A stretch of 64,000 nt of DNA. Source: Blasia pusilla. Taxonomy: Eukaryota. The stretch is taken from NCBI GenBank assembly GCA_050084515.1, contig CM114271.1:48546001-48610000 (forward strand). The letters are read 5' to 3'. The position numbers and the translations under genes were made by a program. The notes beneath the pieces were generated by a model. The model had not been told where the DNA came from, ran no database searches, and saw only the letters and a program-made list of their open reading frames with translations. Positions 31,001-62,611 of the stretch are shown piece after piece. Position 1 is the stretch's first letter; every line of letters starts with the position of its first letter.

Positions 31001-33464
31001 GGTGACGTTGGGAGTTGGACCAGCTGAGGTGTTACAGCTGGCCGCCACGTTGTGTGAGCGTGGAGAGATGACTGCTTCTTGTTCAGAGGTAGTTGAGGAG
31101 GTGTTGGACTTGCCCTCAGAGCCAGTGCTCAAGACGTTCCCCACAGAGTCATGGCATGCAGCAGCGGCAAAGTTGGTAGATATGCCAGCTCGACCGGCCA
31201 TAGAGCGAGCAGTGGTGATACCTGGAGTAGTGTTACTGGATAACCAAGTTGGAGTATTTTTCTTGGTTAGTCCGACGTGGACAGTATATCACCCGCAGCG
31301 CGTCCTACTTGATTCGGGAGCGCAACCCTTGATGTTAGGGAAGGCGGCGTGTTTAGCGTTGGGGTTATGGAAGGCCGATATTGAGCCTTGTCCCTTCCAG
31401 ATACAGACCTCGATTGGGGGCGTGTCACCCACGCAATATATGACTTGACAGGAGATAGTTGTCAAAGTCCAGCCAGAGCATGCGACAGATAGTGCTATGG
31501 TGCACACACGTGCGATTACGACACCAGCTGAGACGTACGATGTGTTGGTGGGGAGTACAGTGTTATATCCCCTGGGATTCATCTTGGACTTCTGGGAGGA
31601 GACCGTTGCTTATCGGTCAGGGTGGCAATCAGGTGACGGCCAGATGAGTCAGTTAACCGTGCAGTTTGCGGGACGAGGTGGTCGATCATGAGGCGAGTCT
31701 GTGACCACGTTGGCGGCTTTCACAGATAGTGTTAGCTGGCCAGAAGAGTTGTTGGAGGAGAATGCACATGCGGAGGATGTCGTAGTAGCGGATAGTCCCA
31801 CGGAGTGACAGGCCATGGCGGGTGTCTCTTCCCATGTTGGCGAGACCTCTTCACCATTGTGGAGTACGACTCGAGAGCTATAGAGGAGTGTCAACGACCT
31901 CGTGAGGCAGGCGTGGAGTCATGCTTTTATTCCAGAGCAGCGAGAGTCACGTGGCAATCGGGTTCTTGGAGTGGAGACGTTTACCCCACTGGATACCACA
32001 CCCGTTGTGTGGCAGTGCCCAGAGGAGGGTGTTAGGGTGTTAGATCTCTTCGGAGGGATTAGCACGGGATTGGCTGCAGTATTGCAGGCGGGCATACGGG
32101 TGCATACCTTTATGTGGAGAGAGATGATACCGCGCGACCAGTATCATTACGTCACGTGGCGCCATTGGTCTAGAGGTATCCTGAGTTGTTGCCGATATCT
32201 GCAATACGGGGATATCAGCATACACTACCCGCCAACATCTCTTTGGTAGGGGCGCAGGATCTTGAAAGAGTTGGCACCATTCATTTGGTGAACGTGTCGT
32301 TGTTGGGAGACACTCGTGCATGTGTGATGACGATTGTGTATCAGGTGAGGTCCTGGTGGGGACCTGCTGTGTTATTAGATGCGGCGAGAGTTAGATCACG
32401 TGCCTATCGTCCACGACTATGGTGGACAAACTGATACCATGAGAGGTACTGAGTCAAGCATACGATGGAGTCCAGAGAGCACCACATCTCACAATGGATG
32501 CTATTTTGGGCTCAAGGCGTCGATCTCAAGTGGTGACACGGGATGATAGACCACCGTTGGCCATGGCCAATAGGGTGGGGGAGTTGAGGGCAGCCTTACC
32601 TACGTTGGTGAGCTTCCCAACATCCCATGCCTTTCGTCAAGGAGGGTCAGGCATGATTTGGGATGAGGTGGCCAGAGCATTGGAGGAGCCTACAGCATAT
32701 GAGCGCGAGCGCGCCATGGGGTTTGCTACCGGTACTACGGCGGTGCCAAGGATGATTGAGGCATCCCGGAGACAGGTGTTGGGGCAGGCAATGGACCTCA
32801 ACTATCTCACATGGATAGTCAGCCTAGGTATGGCTGAGGAGAGATGGATGTGAGTGTCATCCATGTCGTCACGTCCACGAGTTGGACCATTGCCTACAGG
32901 GTCTGTACAGGCATTGGCTGGGGGCGAGACGAGGAGAGATAGGCACCCATGGACTTCCTGGGACGTCGTTCAAGCAGAGAGTGCGAAGGTGGCCAGAGTA
33001 GCACATGTTCATTTTTTGGATGTAGAGCATAGTGTAGGAGGTCAAAATGGAGTGGCTGTTGCAGAGGTGGCTAGGGTTGCTACATAGCAACCAAAGCCAG
33101 AGGTTGCGTCCTCTCCAAGTGAGGTCACAATGGAGACTTGGGAGCCTGTGATAGGTCTCAAGTTGATAGGAGGAGAGCGAAGGTGAGTTCATAGGTTTCT
33201 GAGAGGGCATGTCAGTTGTTTTGCTTCAGTATGAGAGACTTGGGTACGCTGAAGGGTCCTGGCATACGGATTGAGTTGGCTAGTGATACGCCGATCTTTC
33301 GTCAACCCTACATGTATTCTGATATGAAGCAAGCCTTGATTTAGAGCAGGAGTCAGGACTTGTTGGAGGCAAGACTTGTGGAGTTATCACATGGGGAGTA
33401 TGCATCTGCCACAGTCATGCCGACAAAGAAGGATATGTATGGCAATTAGACAGATAGGCAGATG
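28054..33464 (+). mobile_element. Element B (subfamily 2), 3'-truncated, inserted into the integrase of C: A'-gag-protease-DNMT-start of RT
   Basis: Starts TGTCACATCTGGG. A' repeat 28054-~28545 has TATATAA at ~28328. Gag 29404-29808, CCHC knuckle CDCCHRYGHTRDMC ~30320, protease VLLDSGAQP ~31300, DNMT motifs 32030-32830, RT start PIFRQPY ~33290. Confidence 0.85.
32030..32830 (+). pseudogene. DNMT3-like C5 cytosine methyltransferase domain of element B (catalytic PC motif deleted)
   Basis: Reads VLDLFGGISTGLAAVLQAGIRV, LLDAARVRSRAYRPRLWWTN and ERERAMGFATGTTAVP..SRRQVLGQAMDL. The sequence jumps from TIHLV directly to NV, removing motif IV up to motif VI. Confidence 0.85.
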
Positions 33465-35437
33465 CATGCCAACCGGGCACCATCTCCTCATCACTCTCTC
33501 CGTGCCATCGAGCTCCTGTGTCGTCTCTCTGACTCGGACATGGGTTATGACTCAACCCATCCGCATCCTGGTTCAGCCGACCTAGCCTATGAACCACCTC
33601 AAACTCATACTCCTATAGTAATAGAGCCCACCTGGCAAGCTTTCCCGTAAGCTTGTCGGACTCCATCAACCACCTCAACGGCTGATGATCAGTGATAAGT
33701 GTGAAAGGGTTGTCAAATAAATAGCACCTGAAATGTGCCACGGCCCACACTACAGCCAAGCACTCTCCCTCAAAGGAGCTGTACTTCGCCTCTACACTGT
33801 TGTTCGATCGGCTCGCGTAAGCAACAATGAACTCCCTCTCCTCGTCATCCCTCTAAGTAAGCACTGCTCCTAGACCCAACATGCTCCAATCCGTATGTAA
33901 CTGGAATGGGCGACCCTTATCTGGTCTGTGTAAAATGGGTGAGGATGCCAACTTGTCCTTGAGTTCTTGAAATGCTTGCTCCACATCATCTCCTCACAAC
34001 CAAACCTGATCAAGTCTCGTCAAGAAGGTCAAAGACTTTGCGATCGCACTAAAATCCTTGACATACGGTCGATAGAAGTTCGCCAGTCGAAGAAATGCTT
34101 GGACTCGACTCACATCTGTAGGGCGTGGAATCTGCGCAGTAGCCTCTATCTTTGTCTGCTGAACGCCTAACCCACTCGGGTATATGGTGTGTCCCAAGTA
34201 CTCAATCTGCTCCTGAAAGAATCTGCACTTTCCTGGATGTAACTTCAGTCCATGTAATTGCAATCGCCGAAACACCTCCTCCATGTGTCGCTCATGCTCC
34301 TCAACCGTGGAACTGAAGATAAGAATATCATCTATGTAACATCGTACAAAATCCAGGCCATCTAGAATCCTATCCATCACTCTCTGAAACTCTGCAGGCG
34401 CGTTCTTCAACCCAAATGGTAAGAACCGCCACTGATACAAGAAATCTCTCCCGAACCAATCTATCCCCCATAATGTTATCTTCTCCCTGTCCTCCAACCT
34501 CATAGGAAGCTGATGATAGAGATCTAAAGTACTGAAGATCTTTGCATGCCCTACCACATCAAAGATCTCCTCAAGAGTAGGCATGGCGTAACGATCTGAC
34601 CTCGTCTGTCGGTTGATAGGTCGGTAATCTCCACACATCCGCCTATCCATCCAATTGCCATACATATCCTTCTTCGTCGGCATGACTGTGGCAGATGCAT
34701 ACTCCCCATGTGATAACTCCAGAAGTCTTGTCTCCAACAAGTCCTGACTGCTGCGCTGAATCAAGGCTCGCTCCATATTGGAATACCTGTAGGGTCGACG
34801 AAAGATCGGCGTAAAGATCCTTCTCATGTAAAAATAAAGAGTAGTAAAAATGGCACACCCGGCCTAAAACTCCACTCCTCAATCTACATCGGCATATCGA
34901 GCCTCGTCCATCCTGTGCTATCAAGGAATCTGGACGCTAGCACCCTAGTCCTATCTCACACACATACCAGAGAGGTGCTCCAACGGCCCATCATGAGAAA
35001 GATGATTTAGGAAAGCCATCTTCCTCTCTTATATAGGATTGGGATGAGCCAAAAGGCTCTTCCCCTAAAAATAGCCCTCCCCTTGGTAACCTGCGCGCAC
35101 AGGTTAGCAAAGGCGGGTGACCTGGTCAACAAGTCACCCGGTTGTGAAAGACCTCAATATGAAAGTTATTAGAAACAACGTTCCTAACACAATGGACCTA
35201 TCCTCAACCTCATCCGACAAAATGGGAAAAAGTTACACTCAAGATAGTCTGCTGGCTCCTACGCCCTATCCACAATGGATCTCGGCCTATCGGCTATCCA
35301 GATGTGACAACTTGACTAACGTGAGAGAGCATGTTCTCCCTTTGTTTGGCTCATTCTCAACTATATTTAGGAATTTGCTAATTTGGGTAAGTTCCTATTA
35401 AGAACATAGTTGACTTTCTACCTTTGAAAGTGGCCCT

Positions 35438-35956
35438 TGTCACGTCCTTTAGGATAGATCGGTGAGATCTAGTAGAGCGTCTTCAAGAGTAGTGGAGGAT
35501 AGGCCTAGGAGGTCGAGGATGACCTGCTGAAGCCCCGGGGAAACCTGAGAGAGCAGGTTTCCCCTTCGTTTTTGCTCATTTGGAACCATATTTAGGAACT
35601 TACTATTTTAGGTAAGTACCCTTTTGAGTATATGATCGATTTTCTATTTTTGGTGAGTGGCCCTTGACCTCCTACATCAGGTCAAGACCTAAAGAGGTGA
35701 CTTGGGAGAATAGGTTACCATGGAGAGAGCTTGGGAGAGGGGAGGGGTATATATCCCAAGGAGAGAGAGCTTGAGAGCTCATTCTCTCTTTGTTGAACCT
35801 CTTGGCATGAGGCGGCGGAGCTATGGTCCCTTGCCTTGTGAGAGTAACCCAAGCCTTTCATTAGGAGAGTGGGTTTGGTTTGACATGAGAGAGAGAGTGC
35901 ACACCTTTGAGAGTTATGGTATGAGATCGTGTAGAGAGAGATTGGATTTTACTTTA
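35438..35956 (+). repeat. Repeat A1 (5' terminus of element E)
   Basis: Direct repeat of 46481-46997 with roughly six substitutions and one GA indel by eye. TATATAT box at ~35748. Confidence 0.92.
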
Positions 35957-36660
35957 CAAGCCTCTCATTAGGAGAGTGGGTTTGGTTTGACATGAGAGAG
36001 AGTGCACACCTTTGAGAGTTATGGTATGAGATCGTGTAGAGAGAATGCGAGAATGAGAGAAAGAGAGAATGCAAGACAGAGAGAGTGAGAGAGCTTCTTG
36101 GGGGAGCTCACTGGTCACTCGCTGTTTTTGCAGGTTGGGGACCGTGTTCCCCGTTCAACGGCTCATGGGAGTGCTCATCGGAGCAAGGGTTGCTTGGATA
36201 GTTCTTTGCATTTGCCGATTTTTCGTGTGAAAGAGTGGCGCGCGGAAGCGCTGCCCAATTTTTGATAGGGATTGAGTATGGGGGCGGGTTGCCCCATGCC
36301 GATGCTTTCGGGAGAACCATGTCGCTTGCTGATTTGGATTTTTATAGGTTTTACATTTTTGTTGGGAGGAATCAATGCGGAAGCGCTGCCGAATGTTGGG
36401 TAGAAGAAAAAGACATTGGGCTTTACGACAGTCCCCGTCAGTTTTTACTCGAATGTTTGATTCCAAATAATTTTTGATACTAGCGTAGATCGTGAAGTTG
36501 TGCATGTTGTGCAATAAATAGTGCGCAATTTGGAGTTGTGAGCAAAAAGTTATGGTCAATCTTGCAAAACTGCCATTGCTAGGCGATTTTTAGGGTTAAA
36601 TTGTGCAAACCCTAAACCAGCCGCCATAGTGGCGGCGGCCGTCGCCGTCATAGTCACCGT

Positions 36661-36760
36661 CAACCGTCAATGGTCAACTTTCACCGTCAATGGTCAACCA
36701 TCACCGTTAATGGTCAACCATCACCGTCAATGGTCAACTGTCACCGTCAATGGTCCACCG
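36661..36760 (+). repeat. 20-bp minisatellite (TCACCGTCAATGGTCAACnn, about 5 copies) in the 5' leader of element E
   Basis: Tandem units directly visible. A shorter related array lies at ~59815-59878 in element G. Confidence 0.85.
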
Positions 36761-39700
36761 CCCGTTTTCCACCCTTGGTTGCCATTGCCGCCGTTACGGA
36801 GTGGAGGATCTTCCACAACATTCGTTGATTCTCGGACTTGCGTCGCCATCACGTACTTTGTTTTGGCGGCTATCGTCATCAACCTGTGATGGCATATGAC
36901 CTCCCGTTATAGTTTTTGAGTTTTGATTTCCTGCTGCTATGTTGTGATTGGTAGCCGCTCAACGACGATCGGGTACCGTGCCGTGACGCCCGTAGCCGCA
37001 ATGCGCCGCCGATTGCCGCGTCGTGCCGCTCGTGGCCGCACCGCACCATCTTGATTGCAGAGCCGCTCCGGCATTGTGGAGCAGAGTGTGGGTTTATTGT
37101 TGATTGAGGAGGGTATGCCTCCGAGTGCCGCATCCCATCATCGAGGGCCGTGTCGTTCGTAGCCGTTTCGTGCCGCGCACAACGCCGCATCGTTCCGCTG
37201 GAACTGCACCATCTATCGAGGAGTTTTGAGCAACGTCAATACGAGAGGAGTATGACTTGCTGATTGGAGGAGTTGTCTCCACGACTAAGTTGGGGTCAAG
37301 ATTCGCAGTTGCTAAGGATCGACATTGACATGTGTTCAAGTTACCCATTCTGGTCCTTTAGCATGCACGTGTGAGGGATTCTGGGATTTGGGTAGTTTAT
37401 TTGGGGATATTGGGTGTGTGGATGTTGAGAGCATCATTTATGTATGTGATTTAGGGGACATAGACCTGTGTGGGATGTCCGGAGTTGAGGGTAGGTTGTC
37501 AATGAGATGATAGCCTGGTCGATTTGCCGCACCACGCTGCTTATTGCCGCACGTTACATGTCTCGGGGAGGGAGAGTGTAGATCGAGTGCCACATGTTTG
37601 GGATGAGTGATTGAGGGATTACTCACGAGGCAAGAGTGATTGGGTGAGAAGGGCACGAGGGTCATCACGGTGTCCGTTCGGGACTTTGAGAGGCGAGGTG
37701 GTGAACCCGAGAGTAGCTCTAGAGGTTTTACCTAGAGTGGCGTGAGGTTCCGAGGGTCTTCACTTCAGGGACCACCTCGACCTCCTTCTGTGTCATCGTC
37801 AGACGAGGGGGAGGGTGTAGAGGAATTTGTGAGCACATCGCTAGACATTGTGAGTGGTCCTACCAGTTGGGCGTACGAGATAGACGACCGGGGTAGAGGA
37901 CCGCGTAGGTTTTTAGGTGTAGTAGGTACGATTGAGTTGCACGATTTCATAGCAGAGTTTAGGAGTTGGTGCGACTCCCAGCGGGCCAGGAACTCTAGAG
38001 AGTTTAACCCGTTTACAACATGGAACGGTATGTTCCAGCATTTAGAGGGGGCATCCATGGACGATTACCATGAGTTTTCCCACAGATATGCCCGGGAGAT
38101 TGAGGCATGGCGACTCTAATACGACCCACACTATGTGTCATGGACGGAGCCGTTCCTAGATGAGGAGGAGAATTAGGAGAGGCTACTTCCTCTTCCACTA
38201 GTGATGTTTTAGGAGGGGTTACTCGCACTGGAGCAGTTGCACCGTCTAGTCGGGTTTGTCCCACGTTCAACCCCGTGGTTGAGTTCTTTGCTGAGTTGAG
38301 GGCGAGCTACCAAGGGGTATGGACGGAAAAGTTGCCGAGCATCCACAACTTCTAGAGGCGCCCAGGTGAGAGTTTACGTGAGGCTTACACTCACTTGCGC
38401 CGTTTGATCAACGTCACTCAGGGGGTGACAGAGGCTCAGGCTATCCAGTCATGATACGCGATGTTGGACCAGACCCTGCGGCCACGGGTGCGGGAGGGGG
38501 TGCTTCTTATGAGCACCTCCCCTATGTTGAGAGATGTCTTTAGGACCGCCGAGAAAATTCAGCGCAACATAGCGGAGGAGAGCGTAGCCACCATGGGTTC
38601 TGGACGAGAGCAGTCGCGATTGGCTGCACCACCTATGCAACAACGTGGACTCCGAGATAGGTCAATTGTGGCACCACGAGCTCAGGGAGGATACCGGGAG
38701 CTCGTGACACAGAGACCTGCGCCTTCATATATGGCTCAACAGCAGCCGCCTACTATTACTTGTTAGTCAAGTGATGGAGCCCATCATCAGCGCCATTGCA
38801 CTCGTCAAGGTCATGGACGTATGCCTCAACATGGAGGAGGAGATGGTGCTGCACCAGGAGGTTATCAGTGTGACTATTGTGAGAGGTATGGTCATACACG
38901 CGCCAGGTGTTTCAATTTACATCCTGAGTTACATTCGGACCGAGGGCCAGAGAGGGCACCAGAGCGAGTAGCCGGTCCGGGTGGGCCTAGAGATTGTGCA
39001 CCAGGTGGTCCCGTTGGGGGACGAGGAGCTGGAGCTGCCCGACAGGGTGGTGGAGCTGCCCATGGAGGAGGTAGAGTACCACCACCTAGATGCGCCGAGG
39101 GAGACGCCGGACGTGAGGTTGGGATGGATGCTCAGATACAAGAGCTACAGGAGCAGATTGCCACTATGGCATTGAGGTTACCCTATGCCGGATCCATGGC
39201 ATCGACATCATATGGAGTAGCCAAAGCTCTGGAGGATCTTGGTTGGATGTGCGGGGTTGCCCAAATGGAGGACGCCATAGTTATGATGCGTGGAGCAGCC
39301 GTAGAGTTGGATCCACAACGAGGGGAAATCAGAAAACAGACTAGGCTTCCTTAGTCTTTCACGTTGTCCGAAGCGATGAGGACCCCATCGATGGGTCCTC
39401 ATCAAGGTTCCTTGAGAGCTCGTGATGTTGTTGGTGTGCAGGCATGGAGGGTGATGGGAGAAGCAAGTGCGATGACTTCTATTGTTGATGCTCAGGAGGG
39501 GCATGTGTCGAGCACATTGTTGGGGGCGGCCACCATTGTGTACCGCACTCCTTTATTTTATGCTTCCGATGTTATGACGTTGGGGGGTACGCCCGCCGAG
39601 GCTTTTCGGCTGGCCGCGTCGCTATGTGAGCGCGGAGTTGGAGTTCCTGCATCACGTTCAGAGGTGATTGCAGAGGAGGTGATGGACCTGCCCTTGGAGC

Positions 39701-40589
39701 GGATGCTCGGACCGTCCACGTCAAATTCATGGCAAGCTGCGGCTGCTAGGATGGCGGAGATGCCCGCTAGACCCGCGATAGAGCGTGCCATGGCGTCTCC
39801 TGGTGTTGTGTTGCTGGATAACCGAGGAGAGGTCTTCCTGTTGGTGAGTCCTGGAGGTAGAGCTTTTAGTCTGCATCGCGTCTTGTTGGATTCAGGAGCG
39901 CAACCCGTGATGTTGGGGAAAGCGTCATTTAGAGGATTGGGCTTGACGAGAGCCGATGTGGAGCGTTGTCCATTCCGGATACTGACATCCTTGGGTGGAG
40001 CGAGTACCACACAGTATATCACCCGACAAGAGGTCGTGGTGAGGATTCGCCCGGGACATCCTACAGATGAGTCCATGGTGCGCGCAAGGCGATAGTAGTG
40101 ATCGATGAGAGTCCACGACGTCTTGGTTGGTGGAGCAGTGTTATACCCAATGGGGTTTTCCCTGGATTACTGGGAGGAGTCAGCGTCCTACAAACCAGGA
40201 TGGCAGTCAGGTGATGGGCGCCTTAGCTCATTACCCGTTTGATTTACAGGTGCAGTGATCAAGCAACGGCCAAGAGAGATGGCGACCTTAGCAGCATTTA
40301 GCACTGCCATCACTTGGGCTAGTGATTTGATTGAGGGATATGTCCATGCATAGGATACTCTCGTTCTTGATATTTCTATGGAGAGGAGTGTTATGGTAGC
40401 TGCATCATTCCGTGGAGGAGAGGTGCCGTTGTGGGGCTCGATTGAGGAACTTTGACGATTGGCAGATGAGCACGTGCAGACCGCGTGGAGCGTGATGGGT
40501 CTGAGGAACCCGAGGTTGCAGGGAGTGCTACAATGACACCCTTGGATACCACACCCATTGTGTGGTGTATCCCGGGGGAGGGTATTTGA

Positions 40590-41530
40590 GTGTTAGATCT
40601 CTTTGGAGGGATTAGCATCGGGTTAGCTGCTGTTTTGCAGGCAGGAGTGCGAGTACAACAGTACCTGTATGTGGAGAGTGATGATGTTGCAAGGCGCGTC
40701 TCACTACGACATGTGGCGTAGTTACGCCTACGTTTTCCCGACTTATTGTCTGCATGCGCACTACATGGGTACTAGAGTTCCCTACCAAGGAATATTTTGT
40801 TCTTGGGGGCGCAGGACTTAGAGCAGGTAGGGACCATTGATTTGGTCATTGCCGGTTGGCCATGTCAGGTCCAATCGAGTGCTGGACGAGGCAGCGGGTT
40901 GGCGGACACACGGTCTAGGTTGTTTTGGGAGATGTTGAGGGTCTTACGGCAGTTGCAGGAGCACCAGTCTCGTTCTCCAGCCAATATTTTGGAGAATGTG
41001 CCGATCTTAGGAGACTCCAGGTCACGGGTGGTGACGAATGCTCATCAGGTGTGTGCGTGGATCAGCCCAACAGTGTTCTTGGATGCGCCAAGTGTAGGTT
41101 CTAGAGCCCATCTCCCGCGTCTATGATGGACCAACTTGGTGCCCCATGCGGTGTTACGGAGGGCGAGAGTGGAGCGCCCCTCCCATTTGTTAGTGGATTC
41201 CATTCTAGGTCCAGGTCGTTGATCACAGGCAGTGGGGCATGATGATCGACCACCGTTGACTGTGGTCAACAGGGTAGGCAAGCCACGGGCAGCCTTGCCC
41301 ACGTTTGTGAGTTTTCCCACTTCCTATGCATACAAGGAGGCCGCGCCTGGCTTGGTTTGGGATGACCAGGTTCAGCGATTAGTGGAGCCCAACGCCGACG
41401 AGAGAGAGCGAGGGATGGGATTTCCCACAGGAGTGACGGCAGTACCGTCAGTGTCAGAGGCATCACGACGCCATCTCTTGGGTCAAGCGACGGACCTGAA
41501 CTGCTTGACATGGATCCTCAACTTGGGAGT
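40590..41530 (+). pseudogene. DNMT3-like C5 cytosine methyltransferase domain of element E
   Basis: Motif I VLDLFGGI, motif II YVE, motif IV DLVIAGWPCQ, SRLFWEMLRVL, motif VI ILENV, motif VIII FLDAPSVGSRAHLPRL*WTNL, motifs IX-X ERERGMGFPTGVTAVPSVSEASRRHLLGQA. All are in one frame, the same frame as the start of the downstream RT. Confidence 0.93.
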
Positions 41531-44112
41531 GGCTGAGCAGCGTCGTATGAGATCGCGACAGATCATAGCGGTTGCGTTGGTGAGCCCCATGCCTACCGAG
41601 ACGGTGGAGGCAATGGCTGGGGGCGAGACCCGAGGAGATCGGGAGAGACACCCTTGGACTTCTTGGGATGTTTTGCAGGTATGCAAGGAGATGATAGCCA
41701 CAACATCGAGCATGGTTTCGGCCACTGCACGTGGAGGAGATTAGAGTTTGCAGTTGGCTGCAGGAGAGCGGCCGAGTGTTGTCGTTCGAGACAGGATTGC
41801 ACCATAGCAACCACCGATACCCGCGCCGGAGAGTCCTACCGTAGTCACGATGGAGACTTGGGAGCCAGATATGGGCCCTAAGTTGACAGGAGGAGAGCGG
41901 CGCCGAATACATCAGTTCCTCAGGAGTTGTAGGAGCTGCTTTGCGTTGAACATGGAGGATTTGGGTACGTTGAAGGGACCGAGGATCCGCATTAAGTTGT
42001 CGAGTGATACGCCGATCTTTCGACGACCCTACAGGTACAGTGATATGGAGAGGGCTCTGATTCAGAGTAGGAGCCAGGACTTGGTCAGAGCAGGACTAGT
42101 GGAGATGTCGCATGGGGAGTATGCATCTGCCACTGTCATGCCCACCAAGAAGGATGTGCATGGCAACTCGACGGATAGGCGGATGTGTGGGGATTACCGA
42201 CCTATCAATCGGTAGACGAAGTCCGATAGGTATGCCATGCCCACCCCTGAGGAGATCTTTGATACGATTGGTCACGCAAAGATCTTGATTCATTGATTTA
42301 TGAGCGGATACCATGTACCCCTATCAGATTGGGAGGACAGCGTAAGACGGCATTTTGGGGCATCGATCCTCACGGGAAGGATTGTTTGTACCAGTGGCGG
42401 TTCTTACCATTTGGGTTAAAGAACGCCCCGTCTGAGTTTCATAGGGTCATGGATAGGATCTTGGCTGGTCTGGATTTTTCTAGGTGTTATATTGATGACA
42501 TCGTAGTCTTTAGCACCACGGTTGAGGAGCATGAGCGACATCTAGAGGAGGTGTTTCGACGATTGCAATTACATGGGCTGAAGCTGCATCCAGGCAAGTG
42601 CAAGTTCTTCTACGACAAGATTGAGTACTTGGGTCATACGATATACCCAAGGGGCCTTGGTGTTCATCAAACGAAGGTAGAGGCTATCTCACGCATTCCA
42701 CGCCCTACAGATGTGAGCCGTGTTCGCGCATTCATGGGATTGGCGAACTTCTATCGGCGATACGTGAAGGGATTCAGTTCGATTGCGAAGCCACTAACCT
42801 TGCTAAAGGTGGATCACGAGTGGCACTGGGGGGATGAGTAGGAGTGAGCATTTTAGTTGCTCAAGGACAGGTTGACGTCTGCGCCCATCTTGAGGAGACT
42901 GATCAAGGGGCGTCCTTTCCAGTTGCACACAGATTGGAGCATGTTGGGGCTTGGAGCGGTGCTCATCCAACATGATGATGAGGGTAGAGAGTTCATGGTG
43001 GCTTATGCTAGCCGCTCGAACAACGTTGCAGAGGCGAAGTACAGCTCGTATGAGGATGAGTGCTTGGCTACGGTGTGGGCTGTCGCGCATTTCAGGTGTT
43101 ACTTATTCGGCAATCCCTTTACCATCATCACTGATCATCAACCACTGAAGTGGTTGATAGAGTCCGACAAGCTTACATGGAAGCTTGCGAGATGGGCTAT
43201 GTTGTTGCAGGAGTATGATTTTTCAGGTGGTACATAGACCTAGGACGCTCAACCAAGATGCAGATGGGTTGAGTTGTAACCCATGACCGAGTTAGCGAGA
43301 TGCGAATGGAGCTCGATGGCATGGAGAGAGTGATGAGGAGTCAATGCCAGGATGGCACGCGTTAGCCTATTTAGGCATGTTGGTTATGGAGAGCCAGAGT
43401 GTGGAGACTTCGATGACGAGGTCTAATGGAGAGTCCTTGGATCCCGAGGCCAGTGAGGAGACGAGAGGTGTCCGAGATATTCATGATGATGGAGTAGTCT
43501 TGGAGTACCTTCGTACTGGAAGAGTTGCGAGCACTATGGGTGCTAGAAAGTGAGATCGGATCCTACAGCAAGCCAGACGGTTCCGTTGGGAGGGGACACA
43601 TGTTTTGAGGGTTTGGAAGGATGGCAGAGTAAGCGTAGTGCCGCATCCTTTGCAGAGAGCACGACTAGTGCAGCATGCCCATGAGGAGTTGGGTCACTTT
43701 GGGGTGAAGCGGACGTACATCTTGCTCCAGATTCAGTATTGGTGGCGAGGCATGCATACTGACGTTCAGCAGTTTTTTGCCAGGTGCATGGTGTGTGATC
43801 GGGTCCGAGCATCGTTCAATGCTCCAACTCCACAGTTGCATCCATTACCGATCATGGGCTTAGGGTACAGATGGAGTTTCGATTTTGCAAGACCTTTGCC
43901 TTTGACACAGCGTCACAGTCGTTATGTGTTGGTGATGGTCGAGCACTTCTCGAAGTGGATCGAGTTGGTTGCATTGCCTGACAAAGCAAGTGAGGGAGTA
44001 GCTTATGCCTTCCTTTACAGAATGCTGAGTCATTATGGCGCACCAGGTGAGGTGTTGACAGACCAGAATACCGAGTTTCGGGACGAGTTCCAAGCCTTGT
44101 GTGATCAACCGC

Positions 44113-45371
44113 TGTCGTATAGTAAAATCAATCAGTATATAAATTCCTTCGTCATTAAATGTTAGATAGAATTTCATTAGTATTAAGTAAATTGGCTTAG
44201 AAAAACAAAATTCTTATGTTTAAACCTCTTTATGGTGCCTCTTTTATGCGGGCCCAACTTTAGAAAAGGAGGTAATAAATAAAAGATGACTTTATAAAAG
44301 TAAAGTAGTTGCTTTAATAAAAAGAAAAAGTAGTCTTGGTTGGTGGCTAGTTTGGAAAATATCAAGTGGATAAAAGAGGATATTTTGGAAGAGATAAGAG
44401 GAAATCTACTTGTGTCAAAATGTGATTGGTTAAGCCTTGAGAGGAAGCCATGTGGCACAAGATAAGATAAGCTCTATTTCGTACTCTTGTGGATCCCTTG
44501 TGAGTATATAAAGAGGAGGAACCTTCAAGGATTCATCACCTTCTATTCCACATCTTGAGTCTCTCGTGTCTCTCTCGAGTGTATGTCTTTGGGATTGCTT
44601 GCTCTTCCAATGAGAGTGGATCACCCCTCTTGGGAGAGTAACTTGATCATGGTCTATTCTTCGAGAGGTTTCTAGAGTGTGGTGTGTGTGTGTGGAGATG
44701 AGAGGTTTGTCACCTTAGAGGAGTTTAGTCATACTAAAATAGTGGATGTTTTGGCTTGTTACTTCCCCAATGAGAGTGGATTATCCCTCTTGGGAGAATA
44801 ATTCCGCCAAAATCCATTCTTGAGGAGAGAAAAGAATATCTATCAAGCATGGATAGGGGTGGAGCACGAGTTGTGTCCGACTTTCCTTTCCTCAATCCAT
44901 ATCATGTCAAAGGTACTTTTTGTAGATAGACACTGGTTCACTCGATATTTAGTTTATCACTGTGGGGAAGCGTTCATGAACCAGGTCATGCAATCTCCAA
45001 CTCCGGTGATTCTTCCTATCGTCACATATGGAAGGACATGGGATTGTACTTTATATGTCCTTATATAGCGATCCATGGATGTCAATAGGCCTGCTCAATT
45101 AGGGTTTAACACTAGTTGTGCTATCTTCCTCGTGTACAAGCGTAAAATAGTTTATAAGGATTTTATAGCTAGGAATTTCGGGGTCCGATGTTACAAAGAA
45201 GTGATCGCCTCGGCACTTCCATTTGTGATACCTGTCGTGAGAGAATGGAGAGTCTACATCATAATTTTGTATTGAAAAAGGAGAACTTTTTAGAGAGTTC
45301 ACCTTGCATCGACCGCATCTACCGCAGCTAGAAGGCCCGCCCTTGCTCGAAGAAAGACTCTCGACACGACA
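44113..45371. mobile_element. 1.26-kb solo-LTR-like or mini element inserted in the integrase of E
   Basis: Termini TGTCGT...ACGACA. It splits the integrase peptide CDQ|ALINHRTTSRDHP. 4-bp TSD CCGC/GCGC with one mismatch. AT-rich, non-coding, TATATAAA at ~44506. Confidence 0.8.
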
Positions 45372-46029
45372 GCGCTGATCAACCACCGCACGACTTCGCG
45401 AGATCATCCCGAGGCGGATGGATTAGCGGAGAGAGTTGTGCAGACGGTGAAGAGGGGTTTACGCAAGTATGGCTTGCAGAGAGGTCAGCTAGGAGATTGG
45501 GACATCCATTTTCCATGGTTGGCGATGGGATACAGATTCAGCAGGCATGCATTCTTAGCGTCTTTTTCACCGTACTTGCTACTTTATGGCCGAGAGCCAA
45601 ATTTACCTGTGGCCATTCGTCAAGATGTTGTGAGGTGCTGGACCTTGATGACCCAGATGTATGGGTGCGAGCATGTTCTCAAAGGGCTGAGTTGTTTCGA
45701 AGAGTGATGCCCATGGCGTTCGAGAACTTGGCGATTGCGCAACATCGAGATACGTTGAGGTATGCGACTATTCGGGGTGGTGGTTATCGACCAACTATCC
45801 GGAGGTTTCATCAGGGAGATTATGTCTACTTGCGTGACGGCGGCAAGCGGCGTTGGATGTGATGCAGGCGCACTATCCGAGAGTGCGTGACGTTTTGCCA
45901 TCCGGTGTTCTCTTGCTGGAGGGACGCGATGGTATGGTATGGAAGGACCATGTGCGTAATTGTGCACCATGTCACCTTCCTAACATTGATAGTAGAGTGG
46001 ATCCGAGCTTAGCAGTAATTCCTGCAGGC

Positions 46030-46160
46030 TTGCGTTGTATGTTGTGTGGTGCGGCCACGATGCTAGTCTGTGATGGTTGTTCGAGAGATTGGCATATGGC
46101 ATGTGTGACGCCACCTCTCACTAGGATTCCTCGGGGACGATAGATGTGTCCTAGATGTAC
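46030..46160 (+). pseudogene. PHD finger at the integrase C-terminus of element E
   Basis: Reads LRCMLCGAATMLVCDGCSRDWHMACVTPPLTRIPRGR*MCPRC, a C4-H-C3 pattern with the conserved Trp mutated to a stop. Confidence 0.88.
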
Positions 46161-46350
46161 ATAGAGGAGATACTAGGTAGGTTTTGATCCCGAATTTTTC
46201 TCTGACATGGATGACATGAAGGCGACTAACGATGGGGCCACATGAGCACCCGGACTTCTTGCTCTTAGCGTCCGAGAGATGTATGTCATGGTAGGTAGGG
46301 ATAGATGGCTATCTGGAGTTAGAGGGACCTAACCACCAGGTAGGGGGGCG

Positions 46351-47125
46351 ATTGGAGATATTTTGGTTCTTCTTGTCTCGTTGTTTGGATGCCATGAGTT
46401 AGCAGGGGATCGTGCGTGTTTGTGTGTGTGTTCGATAATAGCGATGTATGTTGTGTAGCGATGTGTATGCGCACGACAACTATCACGTCCTTTAGGATAG
46501 ATCGGTGAGATCTAGTAGAGCGTCTTCAAGAGTAGTGGAGGATAGGCCTAGGAGGTCGAGGATGACCTGCTGAAGCCCCGGGGAAACCTGAGAGAGCAGG
46601 TTTCCCCTTCGTTTTTGCTCATTTGGAACCATATTTAGGAACTTACTATTTTAGGTAAGTACCCTTTTGAGTATATGATCGATTTTCTATTTTTGGTGAG
46701 TGGCCCTTGACCTCCTACATCAGGTCAAGAGCCAAAGAGGTGACTTGGGAGAATAGGTTACCATGGAGAGAGCTTGGGAGAGGGGAGGGGTATATATCCC
46801 AAGGAGAGAGAGCTTGAGAGCTCATTCTCTCTTTGTTGAACCTCTTGGCATGAGGCGGCGGAGCTATGGTCCCTTGCCTTGTGAGAGTAACCCAAGCCTT
46901 TCATTAGGAGAGTGGGTTTGGTTTGACATGAGAGAGAGTGCACACCTTTGAGAGTTATGGTGTGAGATTGTGTAGAGAGAGATTGGATCTTACTTTAATT
47001 GGAGATATTTTGGTACTTCTTGTCTCGTTGTTTGGATGCCATGAGTTAGCATGGGATCGTGCGTGTTTGTGTGTGTGTTCGGTGATAGCGATTTATGTTG
47101 TGTAGCGATGTGTATGCGCACGACA
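46351..47125 (+). repeat. B1-A2-B2 block at the 3' end of element E
   Basis: B1 46351-46478, 2-nt spacer AC, A2 46481-46997, B2 46998-47125. Preceded by purine tract AGGGGGGCG (46342-46350). Confidence 0.92.
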
Positions 47126-49578
47126 CCCTTGATCTTGTAAAGGAGGTCAAGAGCCAAAGAGATAAGGTGTGAGTATAGATTTATGTGGAGAGAACTTGGG
47201 AGAAGGAAGAGGTATATCCAAAGAGGGAGTTTTGAAGCTCATTCTCTTTTTTGAACCTTTTGGCATGAGGCATTGGAGTTATAATCCTTCATGCCTTGTA
47301 ATTAATCCAAACTTCTTATTAAGAGAGTGGGTTTGGCTTGACTTGAGAGAGAGATAGAAATTGTGTGAGAGATTGTAATGCCTTTGATTTACAAAGAGAG
47401 AATGAAGGAATGAGAGCTCTACAATGCAAGAGCTTGATGGTTGTTTGTTGGTTTTGTAGGTTGGGGACTGTGTTTCCCATTGAGTAGTTCATGGGAATGC
47501 TCACAAGAGCAAGAGCCGTCCCATTGTGTACGTCATTGGAGTGGTCTTGATTTACAAAGAGGTAAGGGTTTACCTATGACCATTCGTTACAATGCGAGTT
47601 AGTTATTGAATCTCAAGAATCTGAATGTATGGACATGAGCATGTTCTCAACGGGGTTGACTTGTCTTGGAGTGTTATATACCCATAACGTTCAAGAATTT
47701 GATTATTTCACATCATCAGGATATGTTGAGGTATGAAAATATTTGGGAAGGTGATTATTGACCAAAAATCTACATAGAAGTTCCATCGAGAATACAATCT
47801 CTACTTTCAGTAGACGACCCTCACAATATTGGATGTTATAGCAAGGTGCGCTATCTTCAAAGTGCATGAGGTGTTGCCATCTATATTTAATGTTCTCATA
47901 TTGGAAGGAAGTGATGTTATGGTTTGGAAGAACCATGTGCATAACTTTGCGCCATGTCACCTTCCGAATATTGATGGTACAATTGATCTAACCTTAACAA
48001 TTAGATGCTACTATTGTTAAGATTGCTAACAATTAGATGCTACTATTGTTAAGCTAGTTATATATTGTATAGATTTTCCCGTAGTAACAATAGAAGCTAG
48101 TTATATATTGTATAGATTTTCCCGTAGTACAACCATTCAACCACCATGCTACTCTATGGTGGATGTTTGAGAGGATAGTATATGGCATGTCTAACGCCAC
48201 CTCTCATGATCAGTAGTGTTCTTCAAGGACTATGGATATGCCCCAAACGTAGGTAGAGTAGGTACTAGATAGTCATAGATCTAGACTTGAGTTAATGATA
48301 TGGATGATATGGATGATAAGAAGACGACTAACGATGGAGCCATATGAGCACCTGACCTTTTTGCTCTTAGTGTCCTATAGATGTATGTCATGGTTGGTAG
48401 GGATAGATGACTATTTAGAGTTAGAGAGACCTAACTAGGGGGGCGATTAGAGATATTTTGCTACATAATTGTCTTAGTATTTAAATCACATGAGTGTGTA
48501 TGATATGTAGTGTGCATGTGCTTGAAGGCAATGCCAATCATGTGTGTTGTGTAGCATTGTGTATACGCATGATATCATAAGAAAAATATCTTATGTCATT
48601 TTGGACAAGTCAACACTAATTACATTAATGCATTTTTTAGCAATTGTCAATTGACAATGAGCACATGATTAAAGATAATTTTCAAGGTTTGGGATTAGCT
48701 TTATTAAAATAAATAGAAGTTGACCCCCAAATGTTAACTCATTAAGAACCCAAGTTTGTGTCTAAAGGACTCTTAATTTCTCACAATTAGATCAAATCAT
48801 TCTTGAGTCTAACCATAGCCCTATTTTCTAATATGGTTATGGTTTAATAGTGTGTATTGAATTAGATTTTGGCCATGCAAGTTATAAATCGACCATACAA
48901 TTAATTGTTTTGAGTTTCTCCTCTTAGAATCCCTCACTAAACTTGACATCCAAATCACTTGTTTGGTCATGAAAACACTTATCAACTAGGTTATCATATC
49001 ACATAGTGTCTACACACAACAATCAATAATCATAAAGTAGATTGACAGTATTTTTTTTGGAATGTTGCAAGAGATTGATATTTTCAATGACAGGATGCAA
49101 GTAGAGTAGCTTTTCAAGTAGTAGACTGATTGTCACTCCCTCATAAGATAAGCAAGAGATTCAATTGTAGCTAATGCAATGTAAGAAACATGGTTCTGTT
49201 TCTTCTACCTTGGTGCTCTCATCTATTGCATTCTTGTGCAACACAAGTCACCTTTGGTCCAAGTTTGCCTTTCCCCTACTAGAATGCAATAGATCGCATA
49301 TATTTTGCATTAAAAGAACTCTATCCCCTAAAAGTATTCTAAAGATGAGATAGAATAAAGGATAAGGTTTCTTTAAAAAACTTAGACACTTATTGATGCA
49401 TATGTTGAAGGGATCACATAGTCGCTTGGGTTTGGCATTACACAAGATTACAACCTACTTTGGTAGAGTTGGTCATCTTCAACTCCAAATGAATCAAGTG
49501 GTGAAATGGATTGTGATGGAAATGACACTCTCTCCTTGCAACCATATTCTCAATCCAAGACAAGACTAGGATCCCTTT

Positions 49579-52500
49579 TGTTGTGTGCATCCATATCGTT
49601 ACACAATCCACATCGCTAGTCACATCTACACAACATATCATACCAATCTTTCTAACACATCGGTAGATCCACATACAAACAAAATACACTCGTGCCTATA
49701 CATCAAGACCACACAACTTCCTCCCTAGTTGGCAGTGGGGTCTCCCTATGGCTAACTCCAATAACACATATTACATCTACCAGACATGACCTACAACCTT
49801 ATACATATCTAGCACCGTTGGTGTTGTCATTTCCGCAACATCTTCCAACACATGCTTGATCCCACGCGTTCCACGGAAGCCGGGTTAAAATATTTTATTT
49901 TAGATCCATCTCACCTATCTCTATCTAGAGATATCAATATATCCGTATGTTTTCCTACAACATTGCACCTAGCTTTCATGTTTATCAAAATCTAACACTC
50001 AGATCCTCTTCCAGATGTTGCCACACAATAAGTGTGGTATGCAAAGATATCAAGTCTCCACTCCAAGAGCATAACCATCACCTCAGTATGTCTACTCCAA
50101 GATACAAGCACGGTTCCACACCTACCTTACAAGCTCGTTTGCTACTCAACGCTCGTACCTAGCAATAGTGAAGAGGTCTCACCAATATGCATGCAGGAAG
50201 AAACATCTGCCATGGCATGGCCCTCCGTGGAACTATCCCCTATCAAGATGTCATATGTAGGTGCGTTCCCCTCCATCAACTCTCTTGGCAAGCTAACAAC
50301 ACATGTGAATATTGCCAATGTGGTTATTGTATCGTCATTTGGTCGACCATCATTACGCCGTACAAACCACACTAGTAATTGGTTCACTTGTCCATCACCT
50401 AATCATCATCCTGGCCGATAAGACATTGTCTCTTCCTAGATATCAAGGATGAAACCAAGGATACAACACCTTGCTTCCTACGAACACATCATATGAATCT
50501 ATTGGTGTTGTAATCACACCAGTGCGCACTACGGCATTATTTGATGCAATTATGGTTGGAGTTTGGCAACTTACTTCTGTTGAGTCATGTACTATGTGGA
50601 TGATACGCCCCAAATAGATGTTTGTATCTAAAAGGAAAAGGCTCAATATGGCCTTTTTGTAATCCCAATGCCAAACACCCCGCCTTTCCTAATATCCAGG
50701 GTTGTCCTCTTGAATCAAATAGGACACGCTAGGGGTGATACACTATACCTGTGGGACTAACCAAGCAAAACACTCCAACTTGATTATCCAAAAACACCAC
50801 AAGTGGTGTCACTATAGCTTGCTCCATGGGTAGATCAAGTTGGCATATCCATCAATTTCGTCATTGTAGCCTGCCAAGATTGAGAGGGGGGACATCCCGA
50901 GCACATGCTCCGAGGGCATGTTGATCCACCATCTCCTCAACAACCACCTCTAAAAAAGAGGGAGTTACCTCTCCACATTTACACAAAGTGGTAGCTACTA
51001 AAACATCTCTGCTGGTCCAACTCCATGGCAGAAAATAAAAGAGTCTGACTCACCCTAGTGGCCACCACTTGTCACGTCTTTTAGGATAGATTGGCAAGAT
51101 CTAGTAGAGAGCCTTCGCAGAAAGTGGAGGACAACCTCAAGAGGTCGAGGATGACGTGTTGAGGCCATGGATAATCTGAGAGAGCAGGTTTCCTCTCCAT
51201 TTCGCCTCATTTGGAGCAACATATAGAAACTTACTATATATGGTAAGTTCCCATTTTGAGTATAGTTGACTTTCCACTTTGGGAAATGGCCCTTGACCCG
51301 CTACATGGGGTGAAGAGCCAAGGATGTGACCTGCAAGCATTGGTTACCATGGAGAGAGCTTAATTGGGAGAGGGAAGGGGGTATACCTCCAAGAGAGAGC
51401 TTGAGCTAGCACATACAAGGCAAGGAGGAGCTATGGTCTTCCTTGCCTTGTATGTGTAACCCAAGTCTCTCATTTAAGAGAGTGGATTTGGTTTGACATG
51501 AGAGAGAGAGAGAGAGAGTTCACCTTGTGGGAGCTCTAATTAATTGATTTATTGGAGATATTTTGGTACTTCTAGTTTCGATGCCATGAGTTAGCATGAG
51601 ATCATGCGTGTTTGTGTGTGTGTGTTTGGTGATAACGATATATGTAGCGATGTGTATGTGCACAATACACTTGTGGGCACCATTGGTCATCTAAGCATCA
51701 TAAATGGTGTATGAATTGCCTTCGACAACATAAATGAATTGGGAAATTTTGGCTTGTGGCCCATTGGTCCCCTCTTGTGGGTCAATCTCAACCCCACCTT
51801 AGTGTGGCTTGGTCAATCTCCTAGCACCCTTAGTCACCACCGCCGCAACCTCTATTTGAGTTGGATTGCACATAAATCTCAACGAGTGTAATTTCATTCC
51901 AAATCCTCACATGATGTAGAGGCTAGAGCTAACATAGGTACTCTCAGCTCTGTTTCCATCATTGGTTGTGTCATTGACATAACAACAATCCTCAGCTCCA
52001 AGTGATCGATACGAGTGAGGAGCATCCTCCATCTCCTCTGATTGGTGGTGGAACTCTACCATCTCGGTCCTCAACTCCTCGATCTCCACCAACTCTCTTG
52101 CCTCAAGGCCCTCGGCCTATTTTTAGACATAGCTCTTAGTGAAGATCAAAACACCTATCCCTAGTGCAACCATATCGGTGATAATGGTCATACTATAAAT
52201 TTGGTGGAGCCATCCTAGGTGGCTCATGAGCAATCGAAGGCACCCTCAGACCTCTACCATATTGTGGGCATTCCCTCTGCCTATAGGCCCACCACACATC
52301 TAAGAAGCCAACATTGGTCCATGTTGGCCAACAAATGTCGGTACGGGCCGTTGCCTCATAGGCTCATAATATCCGCCTTGCTCTCTGGGCACACCAACCT
52401 GCTCTCGTGGTATTGGTGCATGTTGGGGCACTTGTGGGGCTACTGGCACTCAAGGACACCTCAACTCCTAGGGAAATCCTATGGTCATAACTTGCTCCTC

Positions 52501-53824
52501 ACTCATGTTGAGGTCAATCCGCTTAGATCACCTTCAATGTAGGCTTTTCTATGTGAGAAAGCATCGCATCTCAGATTCTCCTCCATAGCTCCCGGTCAAG
52601 AATCCTATGCTAACATTGCACTAAGTATGCCTCAATCACTCCATATGTAGCAATGATTAGTCGCCACATGCACGTGAATGCCTCTCTTAGACTGTCAGTT
52701 GAACTCCGCTCAGACTCTTGTAGACTCTTCATCTTATCGGTCCCTGGTAGGTCATTCCTAATTGACGCAAGAACTCCACTAAAGGACTAAAATTAATTGG
52801 GTGGTGCTCTAGCACCAAAGGTCTTTGCCACCTCATCATCCTCACTTCCATCATCTCCATCTAGTCCTTAGACTAATATTGTTGTAGGCCTATCCCCTCT
52901 CATGATTACTATCCCATCATATGCCTCGCGGCCACTAGTACACATATACCGTGGAGCCCACTGCATCGTCCAAGCATCGATCTCTACCGAGTGTAAAAAC
53001 TGGAACTCCAAATAGTCATCCATTGGAGGACCCTCTAAGTGCTAGAACAAACCCTTCTACACCATGAAAGGGTTGAGCCCCATAAGGGCTTGTATCTTTT
53101 GGAAGTCACACCATATGTCAAACTCTTGAATGAACTCATCAAGATCAATGGTACCTACCGCATAGGAGAAACAATACATGCCCTAGTGGCTCTTGTTGTA
53201 CATATCCCTCCACGTGATATTATCTTTGTTTGCAATCTCATCACCAAACTCGCTGTCCATTGATGATGATCCAACCACACTTGGGATTCAGGGTGGTTCC
53301 TCACTTGAAGCTCCTAAATACCTCACTTCACTTCGTGTAATTCCGCTACCACTACTCTCAAACTACCCCATTCTTCCAAACCCTTGAAGAATGTCGTGAT
53401 GAAAACCTTGCCTCACATGCTCAAGCACTCATACTCACCAAGAATCTCTCACCCTCCTCATTAGCTCACATATGCTAGTGCTAATCCCATGATGGCACAT
53501 CTGGCCTCACGCACACTCCACGCTCAGGCTCACCCTGAGCCTCCGGAATTAGCTCATCTAAGCTACAGACACTCTCTTGGGTTATACATATGACCCCTAC
53601 TTGGAAATCAACCTATATCCACAAACATGCTACAAACATAAGGAGTCTACACTCATCACCATCGCTACACCCATCTAGCCTAAGTTCTATCTAATACTTT
53701 ACACCCTCAATGACATAAGACAATTGTAGGAAAAGGGACTCGAATGGATAAGCTGAACACGCATGCAATCACTCTACTGCATGGTCAACATTAACTGCTT
53801 CATATGGTACAACAAACTCAACGG
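49579..53824 (-). mobile_element. Highly degenerate subfamily-2 element F (leader-gag-protease-DNMT start-[deletion]-B')
   Basis: Reverse-complement similarity to element B leader, gag and protease (e.g. ITTPIDSYDVFVGSKVLYP). B'-type terminus at 49579. Confidence 0.7.
51070..51667 (+). mobile_element. A-B mini element ('solo' form) inserted in F
   Basis: TGTCACGTCTTTTAGGATAG (A) is joined directly to ATTGGAGATATTTTGGTAC...GTGCACAATA (B). 4-bp TSD CACT (51066-51069 / 51668-51671). Confidence 0.8.
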
Positions 53825-54400
53825 CATGAAAATCTCCTTGAACAACATATCAAACCTCATGTTATCGGATGTAGAGTACTACCCGTCATGACGGCCAGCC
53901 AGAACACCTCCGCTGGTCCAACTCCCATTGTTGCCAACTCCATGTCGTAAAACAACAAAGCCTTGCTCACCCTTGTGGCCACCTCAAACATCATGGTCAA
54001 CACTGGCTCCACCCAAGCCAACATAGGAGTTGTCTCTCCAACACCTCTTGACGTTGATGCACCTACCTTACCTTTGGGCACTATTGGTCATCTAGGCACC
54101 ATCCACAATGTCTGAAGTACCTCCAACAATGTAAACAATTAGGGACCCCTGGCTTGTTGCCCATAAGTTTCCTCTTGTGGGCAACAAGAGGAAACTTATG
54201 GGCAACAAGAGGAAACCGTTGAGGTTGTTGTACCATATGAAGCAGTTAATGTTGACCATGCAGTAGAGTGATTGCATGCATGTTCAGCTTATCCATTCGA
54301 GTCCCTTTTCCTACAATTGTCTTATGTCATTGAGGGTGTAAAGTATTAGATAGAACTTAGGCTAGATGGGTGTAGCGATGGTGACGAGTGTAGACTCCTT

Positions 54401-60320: not shown

Positions 60321-60417
60321 GGGTCGACCGTCATTCGGTGTCTACATCGACACCAACATGAGCTTTGTGAGTTATGTCTCCCTCCCTTAAATTTATGACG
60401 TTTTCCCTTATGGTGTC

Positions 60418-61184: not shown

Positions 61185-62360
<1,176 letters not shown>

Positions 62361-62369
62361 CTATACACA

Positions 62370-62610: not shown

Positions 62611-62611
62611 A

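Follow-up and report, generated by a model that had tools for sequence, protein, structure and literature searches.

Split direct repeats in the order A-B-A-B have been used as a mark of retrotransposons that integrate with a tyrosine recombinase, such as the PAT and Ngaro elements of the DIRS order, which to our knowledge leave no target-site duplication (TSD). Junctions of abutted ends are the substrate of DDE enzymes in bacterial insertion sequences of the IS3 and IS30 type. Retroviral integrases have been reported to cut palindromic junctions between two long terminal repeats (LTRs) (PMC1905944, PMC1180852), and Ty3/Gypsy elements of the Tf1/sushi/Tcn1 type prime their own reverse transcription, which has been predicted also for the Tcn1 clade of non-seed plants (Neumann 2019, PMC6317226). 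The closest described element is KnitGypsy-Dnmt3 of the alga Klebsormidium nitens, a Gypsy element with a Dnmt3 methylase in Pol, to which the legend of Fig. 4c of the original description ascribes a DIRS repeat structure and Gypsy-typical domains (de Mendoza 2018, PMC5890265). The same paper places the acquisition of the methylase in the K. nitens lineage; its main-text account gives no TSDs, priming sites or mechanism for the element, and its supplements may say more. The present analysis concerns a related element in a stretch of 64,000 nucleotides from Blasia pusilla (assembly GCA_050084515.1, contig CM114271.1, positions 48,546,001 to 48,610,000 of the forward strand), here called the window.

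The literature on KnitGypsy or DIRS-like Dnmt Gypsy elements yielded nothing beyond PMC5890265, and among the literature on split-direct-repeat retrotransposons no DDE element was apparent from titles and the beginnings of abstracts. The split layout itself is not new, because it is already in print for KnitGypsy-Dnmt3 in one legend sentence (PMC5890265). The present analysis adds the TSDs, shows that integrated copies occur in two forms and that the lineage is broad, and gives sequence evidence for an LTR that is offset from the integrase ends.

Architecture of the insertion

An earlier note on this DNA, made from the sequence alone, had described a Gypsy element with a DDE integrase and split repeats instead of LTRs. 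Repeat search and self-BLAST confirmed the split repeats, which form a single unit of 11,688 bp (window positions 35438-47125) with TGTC...GACA ends and the order A1, genes, B1-AC-A2-B2. Its parts are as follows.

35434-35437, plus strand: left TSD CCCT, identical to the four bases at 47126-47129
35438-35956, plus strand: A1, 519 bp, starting with TGTC
35957-36044 within 35957-36071, plus strand: tandem duplication of the end of A (the last ~107 bp), private to the window copy
46338-46350, plus strand: polypurine tract (PPT) AGGTAGGGGGGCG, adjoining the start of B1
46351-46478, plus strand: B1, 128 bp, ending with GACA
46479-46480, plus strand: AC, the 2-nt spacer that separates the abutting ends GACA and T(A/G)TC
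46481-46997, plus strand: A2, 517 bp
46998-47125, plus strand: B2, 128 bp, ending with GACA
47126-47129, plus strand: right TSD CCCT

A1 and A2 differ by six mismatches and one 2-nt gap, B1 and B2 by five mismatches in 128 positions. A1 contains a TATA box (35747-35754) and a predicted RNA start that would double as self-primer (35778-35792). The integrated copy is not bounded by two equal LTRs as in other Ty3/Gypsy elements, since its 5′ end consists of A only and its 3′ end of B-nn-A-B (nn, the 2-nt spacer); the short TSD and the TG..CA-type ends are those of the group.

The flanks of the unit document a single integration event. The left flank (35318-35437) matches A positions 105-229 and the right flank (47126-47354) matches A positions 224-459; being the two halves of the A of one older relative, they indicate that A1 through B2 were inserted together. 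No separate duplication surrounds A2-B2, which is preceded by CAAC and followed by CCCT. The direct transition from A to the leader, with no B in between, recurs in the window in the copy at 60279-54401 (minus strand) and in the host copy at 47126-47513.

The tandem duplication of the end of A, which spans 35850-36044 overall, starts at the shared CAA where the primer-binding site (PBS) is expected and is absent from sister copies; the joints 35959 to 36079 and 46997 to 36079 were observed in DNA and RNA.

The earlier note had already placed A alone at the 5′ end and B1, A2 and B2 at the 3′ end, with one CCCT duplication around the whole and further copies running from A into the leader, and in all these respects its reading agrees with the coordinates given above. 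Only the phrase "instead of LTRs" proved too strong, because the priming signals described below define a working LTR, B-nn-A. They suggest that this LTR is complete on the 3′ side and that the integrated copy is offset relative to it.

Two integrated forms in the lineage

A scan of metagenome contigs with a reverse transcriptase (RT) alignment confirmed 458 relatives, and 80 loci were retained for comparison. BLAST with seven queries each for A and B matched 47 of these loci and none of the other 33, which may represent families with other end structures. Repeat pairs in L050 and L064 were unrelated to A or B and were dropped. After merging of loci that share flanks or are identical, and with the window copy counted in the long form, two integrated forms can be distinguished.

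Long form, A-genes-PPT-B-nn-A-B (n = 11): window copy, L008, L012, L025, L077, L042, L046, L055, L076, L073, L078
Simple form, A-genes-PPT-B followed by unrelated sequence (n = 10): L010, L011, L028, L032, L034, L036, L050, L051, L061, L075

The B-nn-A-B 3′ end is present in 18 of the 80 metagenome loci, which correspond to 10 distinct elements, and the simple form is about as common as the long form. Where both ends are known, the TSDs of the long form are perfect 4-bp duplications in five of five cases, including the window (CCCT, AAGG, TCTC, CATA, CATA); those of the simple form are perfect in two of three (TGTT, ATTA), and the third (L034, GGTA/AGTA) agrees in three of four bases.

The start of A (TGTC, TATC or TGTT) and the end of B (GACA or AACA) are constant even between families in which the rest of A and B can no longer be aligned, and in all 11 distinct long-form elements B1 and A2 are separated by exactly two nucleotides (AC, GC or AT). 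An additional A-B at the front was found at none of 16 distinct 5′ ends, all of which run from A directly into the leader. The possibilities that the earlier note had itself named as refuting it, namely that most full-length copies carry ordinary A+B LTRs at both ends, that the block is an assembly artefact, or that A2-B2 has a separate TSD, are contradicted by the A-only 5′ ends, by the recurrence of the layout in 10 distinct metagenome elements, and by the unequal bases on either side of A2-B2, respectively.

Methylase, integrase and PHD finger were detected in nearly all loci with enough upstream sequence (tblastn with the intact relative P0033). The long-form locus L056 encodes RT, integrase and PHD finger, and no methylase was detectable upstream of its RT, so that the split-repeat layout may not depend on the methylase.

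Priming signals and the A2|B2 joint

The signals for reverse transcription lie at the inner borders of the repeats. A purine tract, such as AGGGGGGCGAG, is located directly 5′ of B1 in all 10 long-form elements shown (the window copy and nine loci). At the other border, the leader adjoining A1 is complementary to a site in A that lies 24-35 nt past the TATA box, and the paired sequences differ among three divergent families. In L008, the match comprises 16 exact nucleotides within a 23-bp duplex (-30.3 kcal/mol, z -6.1); in the window family, a 15-nt site of a sister copy (60079-60093) is the exact complement of 35778-35792; and in L069, leader and A form an 18-bp duplex. The post-TATA site gave the best leader-A duplex in 12 of 18 copies tested, and the PBS of sister copies adjoins the end of A. 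No tRNA genes that would allow a test for a tRNA-type PBS were present in the window or in 38 loci, and no conventional TGG-type PBS next to A was recognized in the leaders when read by eye.

The complementarity between the PBS and the first bases of the element's own RNA, whose start is predicted from the TATA box, is the arrangement of Tf1, sushi and Tcn1 and suggests Tf1-like self-priming. As in other Gypsy elements, there is a PBS at one LTR boundary and a PPT at the other, but they bracket B-nn-A and not the integrated ends. Because the PPT adjoins B1 and the self-complementary site adjoins A1, the LTR of reverse transcription would be B-nn-A, with the integrase ends TGTC and GACA inside it, 2 bp apart.

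The joint between A2 and B2 falls precisely on these two boundaries. In the window copy it is exact to the base: the final base ahead of the PBS is linked directly to the base that follows the PPT. Variants elsewhere contain an additional A, an additional G (the last base of the PPT), or 21 additional nucleotides that end in the PPT tail CGAG, and one unit (L023/L040) carries the first 9 nt of the PBS at the joint. In sequence, A2|B2 resembles a joint between the two tips of a reverse-transcription product. The likeness of A1 and A2 extends to their last base (52 mismatches in 952 positions before the primer site and 68 in 826 after it, in five long-form elements), as expected if both copies are remade in each cycle.

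Coding content

The window element is a decayed member of a streptophyte Ty3/Gypsy lineage whose Pol includes a C5 methylase of the Dnmt type and has a PHD finger at its end. The domains follow one another in the order gag, protease, C5 DNA methylase, RT, RNase H, integrase with HHCC zinc domain and DDE core, and PHD finger, in broken frames.

37736-40092, plus strand: gag-like frames with zinc knuckle and protease region (translation; frames broken)
40581-41516, plus strand: C5 cytosine DNA methylase domain within Pol (Pfam PF00145, tblastn; frames broken)
41808-43234, plus strand: RT and RNase H (Pfam RVT_1, E 1.8e-23; RT_RNaseH, E 1.9e-36)
43554-45704, plus strand: integrase, H2C2 zinc domain and rve core (PF17921, E 1.1e-15; PF00665, E 2e-10)
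44108-45371, plus strand: secondary insertion of 1,264 bp with TGTC...GACA ends, private to the window copy (empty-site joints)
45838-46140, plus strand: C-terminal PHD finger (Pfam PF00628, E 3.4e-6), present also in relatives

In the broken gag and protease frames, Pfam found weak zinc-finger matches alone and no protease family; the translation contains LLDSGAQ, which we take to be the protease motif. The methylase, located between protease and RT, is evident both from Pfam (PF00145, E 1.4e-11 on 40776-41123) and from tblastn with residues 291-700 of P0033 (E 4e-49). The Pol order protease-RT-RNase H-integrase and the combination of HHCC zinc domain and DDE core are typical of Gypsy elements. 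The closest named protein matches are from liverworts, namely Calypogeia fissa (74-75%) and Marchantia polymorpha (74-80%), and the Marchantia polymorpha models carry PF00145 as well.

Searches for a tyrosine recombinase were negative throughout: Pfam gave no other family in any open reading frame (ORF) of at least 85 aa on either strand; P0033 (1783 aa), which has the same domain order as the window element, contains no phage-integrase domain in a Pfam scan; and no recombinase is included in the precomputed domain lists of the protein matches or of six intact polyproteins (P0121-P0126). The latter polyproteins have 1,742-2,703 aa, comprise methylase, RT, integrase and PHD finger, and are encoded on metagenome contigs of 6-11 kb; some intact polyproteins of relatives span 2,433-2,703 aa. 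The existence of P0121-P0126 indicates that the lineage is probably active somewhere. The earlier note had rightly recognized the HHCC-DDE integrase in Gypsy order, as borne out by the Integrase_H2C2, rve, RVT_1 and RT_RNaseH matches, and the lack of a visible tyrosine recombinase; it had overlooked the DNA methylase and the PHD finger.

The integrase of the window copy is split by the insertion at 44108-45371, across which a related copy is contiguous. The joint of 44107 to 45372 occurs in a DNA contig (X2) and in 10 + 12 RNA reads; because DNA contigs and RNA reads of other copies join these positions, the sequence in between is a private insertion rather than an intron. The insertion lies between CCGC and GCGC; its depth in DNA contigs is very high, and it is transcribed. 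With TGTC...GACA ends that match those of its host element, it may be a non-autonomous element mobilized by the same integrase.

Transcription

Two raw RNA runs with the same species label contain sense-strand RNA over the whole element. Most reads are 90-95% alike and therefore derive from related copies. Reads spanning the junction between the end of A and the leader occur in both runs (19 and 6). RNA depth is 98-165 over A2 and falls to 23 in the last bin, which holds B2 (about four- to seven-fold), and most transcripts probably stop at the A2 border. No RNA start or end in A or B is recorded in the table of positions at which molecules begin or terminate. RNA reads also show loose ends at window position 46351, where many reads continue past the conserved PPT block with a B start resembling that of the L008 family rather than the B of the window copy, which indicates that the organism expresses a second family of the lineage as well.

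A role of B2 as a GU-rich downstream element directing formation of the RNA 3′ end was considered and is unsupported.

Neighbouring relatives in the window

The element lies between two regions (26000-35400 and 47600-64000) in which at least six related Gypsy fragments, in one orientation or the other, are nested and show strand-linked GC skew, including those at 30933-33464, 34813-33454 and 60279-54401. Two more relatives (26586-28051, minus strand, and 48445-48572) have simple-form 3′ ends, with PPT and B followed by unrelated sequence; the former adjoins the start of an oppositely oriented A-like sequence. The leader of the window copy contains at least four tandem 20-bp units (36650-36759), and a similar array is present in the minus-strand sister copy. 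The nest also includes one unit that lacks any internal part.

51070-51663, plus strand: mini A-B unit without internal part, with CACT on both sides

Mechanism and alternative explanations

The observed layout, duplications and domains, together with the positions of the PPT and the self-complementary site, are probably best explained, with appreciable room for doubt, by replication signals of the ordinary LTR type that are offset from the integration signals, so that the integrase would act on internal TGTC and GACA ends. Transcription would start about 25-30 nt past the TATA box in A, and the first bases of the RNA would fold back onto the complementary site that directly follows A1 and there prime synthesis of the minus strand, as happens in Tf1; the PPT adjoining B1 would prime plus-strand DNA. 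The product would be a linear (B-nn-A)-genes-(B-nn-A). Instead of the tips of this linear DNA, the integrase would use the conserved inverted termini, TGTC where A starts and GACA where B ends, which lie head to head, 2 bp apart, within every B-nn-A LTR. Cuts at the TGTC of the left LTR and the GACA of the right LTR would produce the simple form, A-genes-B. If the two tips were joined beforehand, so that on the right side the end of A ran into the start of B, a GACA further to the right would be used and the long form, A-genes-B-nn-A-B, would result. Only the long form would give RNA with A at both ends, so that only this form could found new copies; the simple form, which has no 3′ A, should be unable to replicate. 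Tip joining would be one-sided, for example through read-around of the plus strand past the end of A into the start of B. The absence of the mirror product, A-B-nn-A-genes, from all 16 distinct 5′ ends argues against a free circle and for such a one-sided process. We infer the priming, the tip joining, the nicking of internal sites by the integrase and the ends of the RNA from sequence features.

Several points weigh against this offset-LTR mechanism. The RNA start, the poly(A) site and the DNA ends rest on sequence prediction. In 6 of the 18 copies tested, the best leader-A duplex lies elsewhere; these copies are mutated, and one lacks the site. The PBS-like match of the window copy (12 nt, 36060-36071) is 104 nt away from the end of A because of the private duplication. 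Some RNA reads cross position 46997, where indel calls are supported by 9 of 66 and 8 of 39 reads, which means that some transcripts extend into B, and B is not clearly richer in GU than A. The variants of the A2|B2 joint could be old mutations of one inherited joint, and the L023/L040 unit with its PBS remnant could equally be an internally deleted element. Past the primer site, mismatches between A1 and A2 are slightly more frequent than before it (p 0.023), which the mechanism leaves unexplained. Finally, both the simple form and the mini A-B unit can arise later by recombination between B1 and B2 or between A1 and A2, and they are for this reason no proof that the integrase cuts internal sites.

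The alternatives account for parts of the same evidence. A free two-LTR circle formed by host end-joining, of which the integrase opens either of two identical GACA-nn-TGTC junctions, would explain the A|B joint with its small additions and losses and also the 2-bp spacer, which would leave 2-nt 5′ overhangs, and the cleavage of LTR-LTR junctions by integrases is in print (PMC1905944, PMC1180852). However, the other junction should give A-B-nn-A-genes-B equally often, yet none of the 16 5′ ends has this structure, as against 11 long-form 3′ ends; a one-sided process, such as the plus-strand read-around described above, fits better and makes the circle unlikely. In a scheme of DIRS- or PAT-like copying without a recombinase, RNA would start within A1 and extend into B2, the outer portions of A1 and B2 that it lacks would be restored from the internal B1-nn-A2, the integrase would trim the overshoot at TGTC and GACA, and the A2|B2 joint would be inherited via RNA. 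The layout is that of the PAT and Ngaro elements and of SymbioDIRS, and the scheme would accommodate both the RNA reads that cross the A2|B2 joint and the identical +G joint of L025 and L077, which are different insertions, but it has no role for the PPT adjoining B1 (10 of 10) or the self-complementary site adjoining A1. Moreover, the parts of A1 and A2 past the RNA start would never be equalized, yet they differ at only 68 of 826 positions, nearly as few as in the remainder of A (52 of 952), although A is unalignable between families. Together with the four- to seven-fold fall of RNA depth past A2, this renders such copying quite improbable.

The two remaining explanations fare worse. That the element is of the true Ngaro/PAT type, its tyrosine recombinase being encoded elsewhere in the genome or lost from the copies, is suggested by the repeat layout only and is highly improbable, given that no recombinase domain was found in ORFs of at least 85 aa on both strands, in P0033, or in the domain lists of P0121-P0126, that eight of the nine units with both ends known have perfect 4-bp TSDs (the ninth agrees in three of four bases), and that the inverted TG..CA-type ends and the HHCC-DDE integrase are conserved throughout the lineage. 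The layout, which the earlier note had called a hallmark of Ngaro/PAT-type elements, is indeed theirs in repeat order, but the implied mechanism does not follow, because a TSD and TG..CA-type ends fit a DDE integrase; the likeness is one of layout only. An ordinary A+B LTR element with B missing from the 5′ LTR, a nested solo LTR, or an assembly error might be suspected in a dense nest of related elements and in a copy with private rearrangements. It is barely credible in view of the direct transition from A to the leader at all 16 distinct 5′ ends, the same 3′ layout in 10 distinct elements from separate assemblies, the lack of a separate TSD around A2-B2, and the report of the same layout for Klebsormidium (PMC5890265).

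Implications

The occurrence of the A-B-A-B pattern in a lineage with a DDE integrase means that the pattern alone is no proof of a mechanism. Programs for LTR detection that expect two equal ends will miss such elements in bryophyte genomes or assign them wrong boundaries. The group of methylase-carrying Gypsy elements, which had been described for one alga, is present also in a liverwort-like sequence and in many metagenome contigs. If the offset-LTR mechanism is correct, the lineage would provide a natural system in which a retroelement integrase acts on internal abutted ends; it would bear on the old question of whether LTR-LTR junctions are substrates for integration.

Comparison with known systems

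KnitGypsy-Dnmt3, compared here by its description only (PMC5890265), shares with the window element the Gypsy domains, a Dnmt-type C5 methylase in the Pol frame and the DIRS-like repeat layout. Its host is an alga, whereas the window element is liverwort-like by its protein matches, and no K. nitens sequence turned up among the protein matches of the window element and its relatives.

With PAT, Ngaro and other DIRS-order elements, the lineage has in common the split direct repeats in the order A1-genes-B1-A2-B2. It differs from them by its DDE integrase, by the lack of an encoded tyrosine recombinase in the sequences searched, by 4-bp TSDs and TG..CA-type ends, and by a PPT and a PBS that bracket B-nn-A. 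The likeness to Tf1, sushi and Tcn1 consists of an LTR-adjacent site that can pair with the first bases of the element's own transcript instead of with a tRNA (PMC6317226). By contrast, those elements, to which the lineage was compared by features, have equal LTRs and a chromodomain at the C terminus of the integrase; the window lineage has offset repeats and a PHD finger in its place.

The junctions of IS3/IS30-type insertion sequences and the two-LTR junctions of retroviruses resemble the arrangement inside B-nn-A in that inverted ends lie head to head, separated by a spacer of a few base pairs, as a substrate of a DDE enzyme (for retroviruses, as reported in PMC1905944 and PMC1180852). In the window lineage, the junction is built into every LTR, and its use by the integrase is predicted from sequence only. 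A tentative proposal, to which we give slightly less than an even chance, is that of an LTR lineage reaching from charophytes to bryophytes which carries abutted integrase ends, as in insertion sequences, inside its LTR, must form an LTR-LTR joint, a "dead-end" junction that here would be an obligatory intermediate, in each cycle to yield a copy able to replicate, and has converged on the DIRS-like pattern without a recombinase.

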